A DNA stretch of 64,000 bases from Candidatus Latescibacterota bacterium (GCA_965206595.1 OZ242214.1:1394986-1458985), one strand, 5' to 3'; numbered from the stretch's first letter, positions 24,809 to 30,142 are shown. A program made the numbers and translations. The notes: generated by a model from the sequence alone, not told the origin.

Positions 24809-24892
24809 GGATGCGGCGCCAAGCCGTGGCGGGGCGTACCTGGCGTGGGCGAAAATCTTCACACTCCCGTGCGCTGACCAACCCAGTCATAG

Positions 24893-25985
24893 AGCAAGTC
24901 CCCGGAATACAACGGACGCGAGCACGGGTGGTCCGCCCATTACGACGGCGAGTGGGTCTCGGCCGTACTGGCGGTGTTTCTGCGCGTGGTGGGCGGCTGG
25001 TATCGACGTCAGGCGCAGGCCATGGGCCATGACCGCGCGCGGTGGGGCTCGGTGACCTTCGTCCAGCGGTTCGGTTCCTCCCTGAACCTCAATCCCCACA
25101 TGCACGTGCTCATGCTCGACGGGGTCTACGTCGATGGGGAGGACGCTCCGGTTTTCGTAGCGGCCCCGCCGTTGTCGGACCAAGCCGTGCAGCAGATCGT
25201 GGAGACGAGTGCGCGCCGCATCATCCGCTTGTGCACGAAACGCGGCCTGTTGGACGACACCGCCGCCGATCCGCTCGCCGACGAGGAGCCGGTGCTGGCG
25301 GCTCTCACCGCGGCTTCGGTGCGAGGGCTCACCGCCACACCGGGGCCCGCGCCGGCCAACGCCTGCGCCGGGTCCTGAAAGATCCGGCCACCGGGGTGCG
25401 TACGGCGCCCTTGTGCTTTGCTTCGCGCGGCTTTTCGCTGCATGCGGCAACGCGGATCGCAGGCCCTGACCGGCGCGGGCTCGAACGCTTGTGCCGCTAC
25501 GTGGCCCGGCCGCCCTGGCGGGAGGGCGTCTGCGCTTTGTCGATGCCGACCCTCTTTCCTTCGCGCTCAAAACGCCGTGGTCGGATGGGACCCGCCATCT
25601 CCTGCTGTCTCCGATGGACCTGCTGGAGAAGCTGGCGGCTCTGGTTCCCCCGCCCCGGTTTCATCTCCTGCGCTACCACGGGGTCCTGGCGCCCCGGGCC
25701 CGGGCCCGCGAGCGCATCGTGCCGGCCAAGCCGGTTGCCGAGTCGTCGTCGGCGGACGGCTCGGCGAGCGTTGCGTCCTGCGGCCATCGACTGCGGTGGG
25801 CGACCCTGCTGGCGCGGGTGTTTTCCTCCGACCTCAGCGAATGCGCGGCATGCGGCGGTGGCCTGAGAATCATCGCCGCCCTGACCGATCCGGCCTCGAT
25901 CCGGACCTATCCGGAGGGGGTAGGGCTGCCGGCGATGCCCCCGCCGAGGGCCCCGCCTGAGCCGCTGTTCGAGTTCGCCGCCTGA
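24893..25985 (+). pseudogene. IS91-family (HUH, rolling-circle) transposase remnant: 5'-truncated and frameshifted
   Basis: Pieces in three frames: HUH-like NLNPHMHVLMLDGVY (ORF 24974..25378), LCRYVARPPW region (frame of 25042..25866), C-terminal FHLLRYHGVLAP plus Cys-rich CGHRLRW...CAACGG (ORF 25491..25985). Open frame begins only at 24893, directly after the ydjM-like gene, so the N-terminal ~100 aa are missing. Confidence 0.65.
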
Positions 25986-26289
25986 CCTGCCTTCTCGACC
26001 CGTCGCCGTCGCCGGGCGTACGGCGGGGGGTGCCCTCAACGGTCCCTCAGGCCCCGGATTTTGATCCGGATACGGGCCTACAGGCAACCAAACTGTACTG
26101 CGAGCTCGGCCGAAGGACTGGCAAACGATCCTCAGGGAGCTGCCTGACCCTAGCGGTGCGCTCAGCGCCTTGACCCGAGAGTCCAAAAAAGGTGCCTCAT
26201 TTTACCTATACTCAACGACGATGATGGCGCTCATAGCTCACCTCCATCTTTAAGAGACTGTTTCTGCATCGACCTTCTAATCCATTCGA

Positions 26290-26315
26290 CAACCTTGATT
26301 CTCTCGTAAAAACCC
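26290..26315. repeat. IS1182 terminal inverted repeat, outer left copy
   Basis: CAACCTTGATTCTCTCGTAAAAACCC; 20-nt core identical to the reverse complement of 28460-28479. Confidence 0.7.
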
Positions 26316-26445
26316 TACGTCCCCAGAATGCCCGGTTTTTTATACAACATATAGTGTATGCCTTGTCTTAGTTGGCCAATATATAGTGGCGCTCTAGTGT
26401 GCTGAATCGCTGAACATCCTGAAAATGGGGTTAATACGAAGGAGT

Positions 26446-26472
26446 CAACCTTGACTCCCTCGTAACAACCCC
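26446..26472. repeat. IS1182 IR-like repeat, inner left copy (imperfect)
   Basis: CAACCTTGACTCCCTCGTAACAACCCC; 3 mismatches to the core; 165 bp from the transposase stop. Confidence 0.6.
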
Positions 26473-26636
26473 GTTTTCAAGGCAGAGAATTTTTCTTGAA
26501 ACTTTAGTTTCACCAACATGAAAAGAATCGGGAATGCGCCGCTATTCAAGCAGCTTCAGCGCTCTATCGTCCGATGGCCTCGAATCGGGCTTATAAGGCC
26601 TTTTTGCGGCACCGAAAAGGACCTCCGTTCCCTTTT

Positions 26637-28382
26637 TCAGCCCATCGCCGGAGCTATGGCTTCGGGTTTGGGCGTAAGCGCCCGCAGCATTCTCTTGAAA
26701 TTGCAGGCCAGGGCTTTCAGGTAGACGGCCAGCTCCACGCGCCAGCGTCCGCGCACACGCAGGGCGCCCAGCCCGTGTCTTCGTTTCAGTTCCGAGACCG
26801 TGGCCTCGATGCCGGCGCGAATGCGATAGCGCTCCTTGAAGGCGCCGCTGGCGATGGCGCGGCGGCGGCGTTCGAGGTTGACGGCTTTCAGGTCCACGGT
26901 TACGGCGTAGCCGTCCCCGTCCTGGTTCGGCCGCACCGGGCAGAGGGGAAACAGGGCGCAGGTCTGGCAGCTTCGGCGCTCGAAGGTCAGCACCACGTGG
27001 TGCTTCTTCTTCTCATACGACGTTTGCTCTCTAGCCAGGTATCCGGCCGGGCAGATGGCCGGATCCCGGAGACGGGCCTCGACGAGGAAGTCGGCTTCGG
27101 TCACCGTATCGGGGCGCTCCTCGACGTCGACCTGCGGGCCTTTGACCGGGCTGACCAACTCGGTGCCCAGGCGCTCGGCGTTGACGGCGTTGTCGCCGGA
27201 GCCGAAGGCGGTGTCGGCGACCAGCTCGTCGGGTCGTTGCCCGCGCTCTTCGAGGGCCTCCAGCACCGGCATCGTCGCGTGCTCGTCACTGGCGCAGGCA
27301 TCGGTCACCGCTACGTGGGTGATCCTGTTCACGGTGTCGGTCTGGTCGTCGTCGGTCTGGTCGTCGTCGGTCTGGTCGTCGTCAGTCTGGTCGTCGTCAG
27401 TCTCGACGCAGGTCTCGGCGATCTGCACCTCATACCCCTTGCCCTTGCGGCCGTGGTAGGTGGCCTCGGCATCATAGGGGCTTTGCAGCGAGTCGCTGCC
27501 GACCTTCTCAGGCGCCTTCAGCACCACCGGCACGCCGCCTTCGCCGGCGTCGTCGTCCTCGGTCGAGGGGCGCTGCTTGTCCACGATCACCTCACACTGC
27601 TCCCACAGCAGGCGCTGCAGCAGCGCGTAGGATGCCAGGCCCTCCGCCGCCGTGCCCGCAAACAGCTGATGGAGACGGTAGAGGTCGCGGGCGCACACCG
27701 GCAGCCGCCTCTTGCCCGTGCCGGAGGGCGCGTCCTGGTAGGCCGTGGCGCTGCCGTCCTCCTTCAGGTAGCGCTCGCGCAGGCGCTTCGACACCCGCCC
27801 GTACAGGCGCGGATGCTCCGCCGCCAGGGTTTTCAGAAAGTGACGGAGGGTCTCACACAACAGCCCCAGACGCGACAACACCGCGATGTTGCTGAGCACG
27901 TGGGTGGAGTCCAGACGCTGCCGGGTGACCTTCGTACCCAACGCTTGGAGAATGCCATCCGTGGTCGCCTCGAACGCCTGCCGGCCGCGGTCATGGGCCA
28001 GCAAGCGAGCGCGGAAGTTGTGCAGCGTCAGGACGTTGTTAGTCCTCGTCTTCTGCGCCAGGTGGGCCTCCTCCGGGGTCAGCTCCAGGGCGTGCTGCCA
28101 CAGCAGGCTGAACTCCAGCTGCTCCAGCGCCTCGGCGTCGGTCAGAGCGAACATCTCCTTGAGCAGAAGCACGCCCAAGACCGTCGCCACCGGCTGGTTG
28201 GGACGACCGTTGTCGTCGCAATACAAGAGCGCGAACTGTTCTTCGTCGATCAGCGGCAAGGCGTGCGCGCGAAAGCTCTCGGCCCAGCTCGCCTGCAGGC
28301 GCCGCTGCTTGGACGGAGGCACCAGGTTGCGGCTCTCGAACAGGGTGCGTTGCGAATCCTTCGTACGAAACATCAGCCCCAT
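26637..28382 (-). CDS. IS1182-family DDE transposase
   Basis: 581 aa; N-terminal MGLMFRTKDSQRTLFESRNLVPP, C-terminal Cys-rich region (CQTCALFPLCP), acidic linker with (DDDQT)x4. Confidence 0.8.
   Translation of the reverse strand: MGLMFRTKDSQRTLFESRNLVPPSKQRRLQASWAESFRAHALPLIDEEQFALLYCDDNGRPNQPVATVLGVLLLKEMFALTDAEALEQLEFSLLWQHALELTPEEAHLAQKTRTNNVLTLHNFRARLLAHDRGRQAFEATTDGILQALGTKVTRQRLDSTHVLSNIAVLSRLGLLCETLRHFLKTLAAEHPRLYGRVSKRLRERYLKEDGSATAYQDAPSGTGKRRLPVCARDLYRLHQLFAGTAAEGLASYALLQRLLWEQCEVIVDKQRPSTEDDDAGEGGVPVVLKAPEKVGSDSLQSPYDAEATYHGRKGKGYEVQIAETCVETDDDQTDDDQTDDDQTDDDQTDTVNRITHVAVTDACASDEHATMPVLEALEERGQRPDELVADTAFGSGDNAVNAERLGTELVSPVKGPQVDVEERPDTVTEADFLVEARLRDPAICPAGYLAREQTSYEKKKHHVVLTFERRSCQTCALFPLCPVRPNQDGDGYAVTVDLKAVNLERRRRAIASGAFKERYRIRAGIEATVSELKRRHGLGALRVRGRWRVELAVYLKALACNFKRMLRALTPKPEAIAPAMG
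27336..27404. repeat. 15-bp tandem repeat (about 4.5 units, GTCGGTCTGGTCGTC) inside the IS1182 transposase gene
   Basis: Three perfect units at 27336-27380, then a G->A variant and a partial unit; encodes the DDDQT repeat on the minus strand. Confidence 0.85.
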
Positions 28383-28459
28383 CCAGTAAAGAGGAAGTGT
28401 GTGACGGATTGGTATACACCAATATACCAGGAACCCTTGATTATCAGGGCTGTGAGAGA

Positions 28460-28486
28460 GGGGTTTTTACGAGAGAATCACTCTTG
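28460..28486. repeat. IS1182 terminal inverted repeat, right (transposase-proximal) end
   Basis: GGGGTTTTTACGAGAGAATCACTCTTG. Confidence 0.7.
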
Positions 28487-28560
28487 TTAAAAAGTGCGTA
28501 AAGTGGAGGCTACACCCTTTCCTGCTGTGGGGATGTTGGCAGGTACCCGAAGACCCCAAT

Positions 28561-30142
28561 TTGCTCGCGCAAGTCGGTGATGTTCGCATAACTGTCGAGG
28601 TTTTGCAGACCTATGCTGCAAAGGCGCCTACCAACATGGAAGAATTCCAGGTTGAATACCGGGATCTGCTGCAAACTTTAGTGGATCGGGAGGTGCTGCT
28701 GCTGGAAGCCCAAATCCGGGGAATGGCTGAAGACTCCTTGGCCCAGTCACGACTCCGTGAGGATGAAACAGAGCGCCTCGTGCAAGAGATGCTTTCGCCA
28801 AGTTACCGCCAGGCTTTCGGTTACTCCTGAAGAGGTGAGAAGGGAATTCGAAACTGGTGGCTGGGATGACCAGGTCCAGTGCCTCCAGATCTTCGTGTCC
28901 GATTCGGCCAGAGTAGGAATGCTGTTGGACAAGTTGCAGGAGGGGGCCGACTTCGAGGAATTGGGCAGGCGCTGGGCGGAAGACCGCCTTTTCAAAATCC
29001 CGACCGGTTCGGTGCAGAGGTTTTCTTACTCTGCCAAGGACGGACCCCGAAAAGTCGTGGAGGCGGTTTTCGATTTGTCCGCTGGAGAGGTGACTGGGGC
29101 CATCGAGATCGACGGCGGATGGGTCATTGTCAAGGTTTTGGAAAGGCGTCGGGTTCCGTTCGAGGAGGTGAGGGAGAAGGTTCAAAACTGGTTGACCCGT
29201 AGAAAAAAGGAGGCTTTGCGAGACGTCTATTTCATTTCGCTGCGAGAGAGCTTCGAATTGGCTTTGAACCAGGAAGGAATTGACCTGGTACTGCGGATGC
29301 TGAAAGAGGGGGTCCGCGGCCATGGGCTGGCCGCGGAAGAGCGCATGGTGCCGGTGTACACCTACAGGGGAGGAGCGCTAACGGTAGAAGCGGCCCTTTC
29401 GGCGATAAAACAAGGACCTCGAAGTTCGGCCGACCTTTCCGAAGGCCTTGTGATAGAGAAGTTGAGAGAGGTTCTCAAGCGCAGGCTGGTACTGGCTGAC
29501 GCCCGGTCGCGAGGTCTGGATGAGACCGAGGAATTCAGGAAGTGGAGACGGGGGAAGAAGGCGGACCTGATGATCGGCATGTTGCGCTCCCGGGTCCTCG
29601 ATGAAGAACTAACGGTCTCGGAAGAAGAAATCCGGGCCCGTTACGAGGAGCGCAAGGAGCATTTTCGTCAGCCTGCAAGTGCTCGGGTTCTCGACCTCCT
29701 CGTCAAGGATCCCGGAGAAGCGAGAGCATTACGGCGGGAGATCGAAGCCGGCGGGGACATGCGCAGTCTCATACGTCGCCACAGCATCCGGGAAAATTCC
29801 GAGGAGGGGGTCCTGGAGGTTTACGAAGTACAGTCCATGATTTTTGGAGAAGAATGGCTCAACGCGGTCATGAATGCCCCGGTGAACGAACTACGGGGAC
29901 CTGTCGAGAGCAAAGGGGGATTCTCCCTGTTCAAGGTGCTCGAGAGAAGACCCCGCGACTACTTCCAGCTCGAAAACGAACGCGTGCGCATGACCCTGAT
30001 CAGGGAGATCAGGGAAATCAAGGAGCGGGTACTGTTCAATGAGTTCCTGGAGAGCTTGCTGCGCAAGCATTCCGACCTGATCCATGTTTCAGAGGAGAAT
30101 CTCGAGCGCATGGAGGCTGAGAGCAGAACTGAACTACAATAG
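28561..30142 (+). pseudogene. Parvulin-type peptidyl-prolyl isomerase (SurA/PrsA-like), frameshifted and apparently 5'-truncated by the IS1182 insertion
   Basis: ORF 28561..28830 (SurA-N-like ITVEVLQTYAAKAPTNMEEFQVEYRDLLQTLVDREVL) continues in ORF 28757..30142 after a shift near 28800 (parvulin-like VQCLQIFVSD...GADFEELGRRWAED...GAIEIDGGWVIVKV). No signal peptide; the reading frame stays open back into the IS right end. Confidence 0.6.

Follow-up and report, generated by a model that had tools for sequence, protein, structure and literature searches.

How many mobile elements lie where a single insertion sequence (IS) seems to carry one of its terminal inverted repeats (IRs) twice? The question is raised by a locus in a 64,000-nucleotide stretch of DNA (the window) from a Candidatus Latescibacterota bacterium (GCA_965206595.1 OZ242214.1:1394986-1458985), where an IS1182-like IS stands directly beside a gene for a parvulin-type peptidyl-prolyl isomerase (PPIase). 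We think that the answer is very probably two, namely the IS itself and a later MITE (miniature inverted-repeat transposable element) of the same family, placed end to end beside a dead PPIase gene. The presumed duplicated IS end is, in short, two mobile elements abutted to one another, which is ordinary biology. In the course of events that we favour, an autonomous IS1182-like IS would have arrived first, 5-6 bp upstream of the PPIase lipoprotein gene, and a 152-bp MITE would then have inserted exactly at the boundary formed by the right inverted repeat (IRR) of the IS, with duplication of the flanking ACCT. On this view the true IRR of the IS is the inner, imperfect repeat, and the outer, perfect one is the MITE's end of the left-inverted-repeat (IRL) type.

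The insertion sequence and its small companion

The initial annotation had described inverted repeats with a 20-nt core and two left copies 156 bp apart, and a mismatch scan against shuffled sequence confirmed this pattern. The core, TGATTCTCTCGTAAAAACCC, occurs with 0 mismatches at 26296-26315 (plus strand) and 28461-28480 (minus strand), and a third time, with 3 mismatches, at 26452-26471 (plus strand), against a chance expectation of 0 (100 shuffles); the two left copies (26290-26315 and 26446-26471) are 88% identical. What that description overlooked is an inverted, IR-like arm at 26420-26447 that pairs with the inner repeat, making the latter one half of a 29-nt imperfect palindrome (26420-26448 with 26451-26479, 86% complementary), the 4-bp direct repeats of ACCT that precede both left repeats (Table 1), and a frameshift in the PPIase gene.

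Which of the two left repeats belongs to the IS? Here the relatives are most informative. Three metagenome contigs (L001-L003), whose contexts are unrelated, encode a transposase 92% identical to that of the window (P0004), and in the alignment of these contigs with the window the similarity begins at TGATTCTCTCGTAAAAACCCC and stops at GGGGTTGTTACGAGGGAGTCA, the right-hand end being the window's inner imperfect repeat. All three copies are flanked by matching 4-bp duplications (AGGT, AGAT and TGCT). In addition, a scan of one genome per species for the exact 20-mer IS end gave 36 loci (L006-L041), among which L012, L019, L031 and L022 hold complete or internally deleted IS copies, again with inner-type IRR ends and matching duplications. 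Counted over the lineage, 7 copies of the IS and 8 of the MITE have matching 4-bp duplications; the IS in the window has none. Since the related copies that have matching duplications all stop at the inner-type IRR, we place the true left end of the IS at the inner repeat, 26452, with the IRR at 26452-26472 and the IRL at 28460-28480; 18 of the first 21 positions of these terminal repeats pair when read off the match line, and 22 of 30 by a script count. From these copies and from the sister locus described below, the IS is thus 2029 bp long and runs from 26452 to 28480, and its left boundary, which had been called ambiguous, is unambiguous; nor did the outer perfect repeat hold up as an IS end, since it belongs to a separate 152-bp MITE with an ACCT duplication of its own.

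That small element has a left end of 20 nt identical to the IRL of the IS (20/20) and a right end of 28 nt that matches the IRR side at 24 of 28 positions, while its interior of about 100 bp is unrelated to the IS and no open reading frame (ORF) of at least 50 aa lies wholly inside it. Seven further copies, of 152-156 bp and in different places with different flanks, are present in the Latescibacterota metagenome-assembled genome (MAG) CBDCXV01 (L006, L010, L020, L023, L024 twice and L030), each with a perfect duplication (AGTT, AACT, AGCT, ACCT, AGAT, ATAA and ACCA); of these, six were aligned, and by our own count on the alignment they share about 93-95% identity with the window's copy. Small size, absence of coding capacity, ends that match a partner IS, a duplication of the partner's length and multiple dispersed copies are thus found together. 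Nothing in Rfam matched 25800-28900 at E <= 0.1, and the MITE with its palindrome is thus not a described RNA family.

Nature has also supplied an empty site. The orthologous locus on a second contig (L004, assembly ERZ25071132, with the IS at L004:7564-9562) has flanks 99.7% (left) and 99.6% (right) identical to those of the window, the same IS and the same junctions, and is without exactly 156 bp, that is 152 + 4. It reads CGACAACCT/TGACTCCC (also given as CGACAACCT/TGACTCCCTCG), and only one ACCT separates its flank from the end of the IS. This natural empty site and the dispersed copies in CBDCXV01 show the segment at 26296-26447 to be a MITE, related to the IS but non-autonomous. It was presumably moved in trans by a transposase of this type, for which there is indirect support, since its presence or absence differs between genomes that are 99.6-99.7% identical in their flanks.

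The same pair of loci says something about the IS itself. Between window and sister locus the IS interior is 95.6% identical, with 87 substitutions and a 30-bp repeat-number difference, and the tips are identical or nearly so; such divergence, set between flanks that are 99.6-99.7% identical and alongside near-identical tips, suggests gene conversion by other IS copies. The window copy of the transposase is intact, whereas that of L004 is broken into ORFs of 410 aa and 176 aa. One catalogued protein (P0001), encoded on a 7.05-Mb NCBI/ENA contig, is 100% identical to the window transposase, and P0018 is another copy on that contig. The repeat-number difference falls in the 15-bp tandem repeat at 27336-27403, which encodes (DDDQT)n and is 30 bp shorter in L004; homologous transposases range from 556 to 581 aa, and this repeat is plausibly the source of their length variation.

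Is the element truly of the IS1182 family, as had been proposed? We think this plausible, although not in the strict sense. The transposase carries three Pfam domains above their gathering scores, PF05598 (DUF772, 27.8 bits), PF01609 (DDE_Tnp_1, 44) and PF13751 (DDE_Tnp_1_6, 63.6), and its best IS-family model is the NCBIfam IS1182 model (NF033551, transpos_IS1182; 176.1 bits, E = 1e-51, positions 34-487 of 488), with IS5 next at 61 bits. Its tblastn matches on plasmids, at about 28-31% identity, are mostly genes annotated by the Prokaryotic Genome Annotation Pipeline (PGAP) as 'IS1182 family transposase'. The domains, the IRs, the 4-bp duplication and the best model thus speak for the assignment, and the equivalog cutoff against it.

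Table 1. Features at and around the MITE/IS pair, in positions of the window
Feature	Position	Strand	Remark
Degraded IS91-family (Y2_Tnp) transposase gene	24974-25985	+	at least 2 frames; left of MITE/IS
MITE target-site duplication, left copy, ACCT	26292-26295		read as 6 bp, AACCTT at 26291-26296
MITE	26296-26447	+	152 bp; IRL-type and IRR-type ends
Palindrome of two IRR-type ends, tail to tail (MITE end, ACCT, IS end)	26420-26479		
MITE duplication, right copy, ACCT	26448-26451		also the 4-bp MITE/IS spacer; originally flanked the IRR end of the IS
IS1182-like insertion sequence, complete	26452-28480	-	2029 bp; termini TGA...TCA
Transposase gene	26637-28382	-	intact ORF, 581 aa
15-bp tandem repeat, 4.5 copies, within the transposase gene	27336-27403	-	
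IS IRL-end flank, CTCT	28481-28484		differs from ACCT opposite
PPIase lipoprotein pseudogene, parvulin-type	28486-30142	+	
2-bp deletion site in the PPIase pseudogene	28793-28794	+	

Target sites and abutted ends

What sort of target does this family choose, and why should two of its members meet exactly 4 bp apart? We reconstructed the empty sites of 14 insertions with matched duplications. The base before the duplication (-1) is A and the base after it (+1) is T in 14/14, the first and fourth duplicated positions are A and T in 13/14 each, and C stands at -2 in 7/14 and G at +2 in 10/14. The target accordingly written, (C)A/ANNT/T(G), has a palindromic centre, AANNTT, and as the first base of an element is T and its last base A, the motif AANNTT is restored on either side whenever one inserts. 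Each insertion in this way leaves a fresh target at both of its junctions, into which a second element could land again, leaving pairs that stand 4 bp apart. Whether one reads a 4-bp duplication (ANNT, with termini TGA...TCA) or a 6-bp one (AANNTT, with termini GA...TC) makes no difference to the sequence when the flanks are A/T, as they are in 14/14 cases. One further MITE, L024:1728-1880, has A for T as its first base and AACCAA on both sides, which suggests the 6-bp duplication and termini GA...TC.

Abutted pairs, in which one element starts 0-20 nt after another has ended, were sought both in the sequences analysed here and in the Joint Genome Institute (JGI) metagenome collection. Six were found (the window, L020, L026, L030, L035 and L044), in Latescibacterota and Dehalococcoidia MAGs and on one unassigned metagenome contig; they join various element types in various orientations, the window pair standing tail to tail, and the spacer is exactly 4 in 6/6. 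The metagenome scan gave a single contig, L044, with a spacer of 4, and because it added only this one, the generality of the 4-bp junction rule is limited to six cases. One of them, L035, reads ACTT-IS-ACTT-MITE-ACTT, the textbook product of sequential insertion. It is also the only perfect one (ACTT three times), others reading ACCT/ACCT/CTCT, AGCT/AGCT/AGGT and ATAA/ATAA/GTAA, and because the distal duplications are mismatched in several abutted pairs, a simple re-targeting model is insufficient for these.

Do the elements prefer such junctions, or do they merely meet there by chance? Within the 64-kb window AANNTT occurs 36 times and CAANNTTG 5 times. By a rough, inferential estimate, junctions were used by 3/14 of the matched insertions, against a random expectation of about 0.7% for AANNTT and about 5% for CAANNTTG; on this estimate, junction use lies above a random choice of AANNTT and agrees roughly with a preference for the longer palindrome, which the element ends help to rebuild. 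That the IS/MITE family preferentially re-inserts into its own duplicated targets, rebuilding (C)AANNTT(G), with arrays that accumulate at an invariant 4-bp spacer, is a proposal that these patterns leave evenly poised. If it is true, the family would carry within itself a means of forming tandem and composite arrays, and the 'double IR' of the window would be one instance of it.

The isomerase gene, the unmatched flanks and rival explanations

What, then, has become of the PPIase gene? The initial annotation had placed a SurA/PrsA-like, parvulin-type gene beside the IS and had it cut off by the IS from its upstream region, and this much was borne out: PPIC-type rotamase domains are present (PF13145, 92.8 bits in two stretches; PF00639, 53 bits), and the frame is, as had been stated, open across the IS end, from 28456 onward. 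The accompanying idea of a simple 5' truncation that had removed the signal-peptide region fared less well. When the protein was reconstructed across the frameshift for a homologue search, homologues of 553-555 aa aligned at 71-73% identity over 98-100% of length, their residue 1 falling on codon 28486/7, 5-6 bp from the IS end, and a lipobox, LWGC, is still encoded in frame at 28525-28536. The coding region is thus essentially complete and not truncated. What has been lost is the start codon and the DNA upstream of it: reading in frame from the stop at 28453, one meets no ATG, GTG or TTG before the TTG at 28561, and the aligned start position reads GTT or TTA. An independent lesion lies further in, where 2 bases of a His codon are missing near 28793 (GAGATGCT--TTCGCC against GAGATGCTCCACCGAC in the relative L005), a deletion that shifts the frame into a stop at 28828-28830. 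L004 has the same deletion and the same 5' sequence, and there the gene caller gave only a 407-aa C-terminal fragment (P0121). With its start codon missing, its native upstream region gone and its frame shifted by the 2-bp deletion, the gene is dead, a pseudogene in both genomes.

The IS itself has unmatched flanks. Read in transposase orientation, the IRL is bordered by AGAG and the IRR by AGGT; there is no target-site duplication. The search for duplications at both candidate left ends, which had been suggested at the outset, therefore came out positive for the outer repeat (ACCT on both sides of the MITE) and negative for the IS (ACCT against CTCT). The flanks of the IS in L004 are the same, and because they are identical we take the mismatch to be old and not the result of random misassembly. 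The gene's surroundings have changed as well. In relatives with 71-73% protein identity (L005, L042 and L043) the PPIase gene always lies behind a TPR-ExbB-ExbD-ExbD-257aa cluster, and tblastn of the TPR protein, ExbB, both ExbD proteins, the 257-aa protein and the downstream genes of L005 against the 64-kb window gave no matches; to the left of the IS there are a relic of an IS91-family transposase gene, present at the same side in L004, and ydjM. The left flank (26100-26295) scored no better than shuffled controls against the regions upstream of the PPIase in L005, L042 and L043, and short-word blastn of the left flank against the relatives' upstream regions gave only noise.

Because an IS without a matching duplication here adjoins a PPIase gene without its conserved upstream neighbours, a rearrangement suggests itself, and we would give about equal odds for and against the IS marking an old IS-mediated rearrangement. 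A similar picture may be seen in the Dehalococcoidia MAG CBDFKS01, where the right flank of L033:780-2762 and the left flank of L013 both read AGCA and neither IS copy has a matching duplication; the shared tetranucleotide looks like the signature of recombination between two copies, such as an inversion. As an aside, with the IS91 relic and its flanking DNA (24887-26290) directly left of the MITE/IS, the site is a small graveyard of mobile elements.

Base composition had also been invoked at this locus. GC content is 0.65 for the whole window, 0.64 for the whole IS, 0.67 for the transposase gene, 0.45-0.48 for the non-coding tips of the IS, 0.43 for the MITE, 0.44 for the 110 bp left of it and 0.56 for the PPIase pseudogene (against 0.65-0.69 around it). 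The description of the element and its flanks as GC-poor therefore fits the MITE, the tips and the 110-bp left flank; it does not fit the body of the IS or the transposase gene, which stand at the window mean of 0.65. Nor was low GC, as a mark of recent horizontal origin, borne out for the IS body (0.64 against 0.65), whose composition gives no sign of recent foreign origin.

How well does the two-element reading stand up against other explanations? One rival has a single IS of 2185 bp (26296-28480) between the perfect repeats, the inner repeat being a subterminal transposase-binding site or a tandem end duplication. The outer and right repeats do pair without a mismatch over 20 nt, whereas the inner repeat pairs less well, and tandem duplications of IRL-side sequence have been reported for IS1272 (PMC5678879). 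We nonetheless find it extremely improbable in view of the 7 independent copies with matching duplications that end at the inner-type IRR, the orthologous IS of L004 that stands without the 156 bp, the 152-bp piece with its own inverted IRR-type end, its ACCT/ACCT and its dispersed solo copies, and the outer ends with no matching duplication between them (ACCT against CTCT). The same interval taken as a composite unit between two IRL-type ends was rejected, having no matching duplication and no second copy. Another view reverses the order of events: both elements would be ancestral, the MITE resident and the IS arriving beside it, and L004 would have lost the 156 bp by a direct-repeat deletion. 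This accords with a perfect duplication on the MITE and none on the IS, and the 26-nt direct repeats (88%) begin with an identical 9 nt, CAACCTTGA, in which a crossover gives the L004 sequence. It requires an extra event, however, and the array at L035 fits sequential insertion into a duplicated target; moreover, with flanks that differ by only 0.3-0.4%, a recent gain by an active family is the simpler account. We therefore hold this order to be rather improbable, and in any case the segment is a MITE under either one, only the sequence of events being changed.

The unmatched flanks of the IS admit explanations of their own. Instead of a rearrangement, the IS might simply have inserted upstream of the PPIase gene with an ACCT duplication, the right copy of which later mutated to CTCT. 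The IRL-side flank does fit the target consensus at -2/-1 (CA) and at duplicated positions 1-2 (AG), and ACCTGCTCCTGATG, with a loose likeness to ACCT plus CTCTTG, stands just ahead of the start codon in L043. Two substitutions in 4 bp are nevertheless hard to accept given a flank divergence of 0.3-0.4%, the left flank shows no above-control similarity to the regions upstream of the PPIase in L005, L042 and L043, and it holds the IS91 relic while the conserved ExbB/ExbD neighbours are absent from the window, all of which leads us to think this insertion unlikely. It could also be objected that the join at the IS is chimeric and the PPIase frameshift a long-read error, for the contigs resemble long-read metagenome assemblies of modest coverage (with names such as ctg820168_11x) and ISs are classic misassembly points. 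Yet the window and L004 contigs agree base for base on both junctions and on the 2-bp deletion, and the deletion takes two bases of a His codon and is no homopolymer shortening, making an assembly artefact very improbable.

Several observations weigh against the two-element reading itself or parts of it. No second MITE copy is visible within the 64-kb window, and both mobilisation in trans and re-targeting are inferred from patterns in the sequence. L004 could have lost its MITE by recombination at the 9-nt repeat and need not always have been without it. In the window, L020, L030 and L026 the partner's distal duplication is off by 1-2 bases. The first PPIase codons match their homologues weakly at the DNA level, making the estimate of 0 or 1 codon lost uncertain by a couple of codons. 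Lastly, the transposase score of 176.1 bits lies below the curated cutoff of NF033551, which is 270.

Hosts, relatives and known systems

How widely is this family found? The MAGs that contain the exact 20-nt IS end are labelled Latescibacterota, Dehalococcoidia, Anaerolineae, Kuenenia, Planctomycetota, Phycisphaerae, Acidobacteria and Gemmatimonadota, and for ends so nearly identical this range of hosts is unusually broad. It does show that the family spreads horizontally. Other lineages of the IS have MITEs of their own, for example the 163-bp copies in Dehalococcoidia (L026, L027 and L035), and a Kuenenia MAG (L037) carries a 122-bp IR-bounded element without a matching duplication.

What is gained from the locus is, in the main, better annotation. 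The true ends are fixed for a widespread and so far unnamed IS1182-like element, and its cognate 152-bp MITE is identified together with a natural pair of filled and empty sites. More generally, a 'duplicated IR' can turn out to be two abutted elements with one common target duplication, and in this instance the PPIase gene next door is marked as a pseudogene, with a probable rearrangement breakpoint at the IS. Our knowledge of transposition is unchanged, IS1182-derived MITEs with 4-bp duplications having already been described, and the only mildly unusual point is the recurrent abutment at a 4-bp spacing, in six cases.

One element of the IS1182 family is ISPse1 of Paracoccus seriniphilus, with 1653 bp, 16-bp IRs and 4-bp direct repeats (PMC3281130), and the present IS resembles the family in its single DDE transposase (DUF772 N-terminal, DDE_Tnp_1_6 C-terminal), its short terminal IRs and its 4-bp duplication. 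It differs from annotated IS1182 elements in a transposase that is about 28-31% identical to theirs and scores below the cutoff, in its greater length (2029 bp) and in the variable (DDDQT)n. For the MITE, the closest likeness, by description, is to the ISMac2-derived MITEs (IS1182 family) of Methanosarcina acetivorans, which are 160 bp long and present in 14 copies with 26-bp IRs and 4-bp direct repeats (PMC3852290). The elements described here share their size (152-156 bp), IS1182-type ends, 4-bp duplication and dispersed copies, and are set apart by a host phylum that is apparently Latescibacterota, by one copy placed precisely at the edge of a complete IS and by the natural empty site.

The three-IR appearance of the locus recalls IS1272, a staphylococcal member of the same broad family with larger forms that have tandem IRL-side duplications and three-IR structures, and which is reported to replace inverted-repeat targets without making a duplication (PMC5678879). 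The present family, in contrast, regularly makes duplications in AANNTT, and the extra IR here is that of a separate MITE.

Finally, the abutted ends invite comparison with IS30, which targets IRs, and with the abutted IR-IR junctions of IS30, IS911 and IS21, in which the spacer is short and fixed and resident ends are preferred insertion points. In those systems, junctions of IRL with IRR serve as reactive intermediates when one element or a dimer transposes. The junctions found here, unlike them, join different elements in any orientation, with a spacer that is the target duplication, and for this reason it is enough, in explaining them, that a duplicated target is simply used again.

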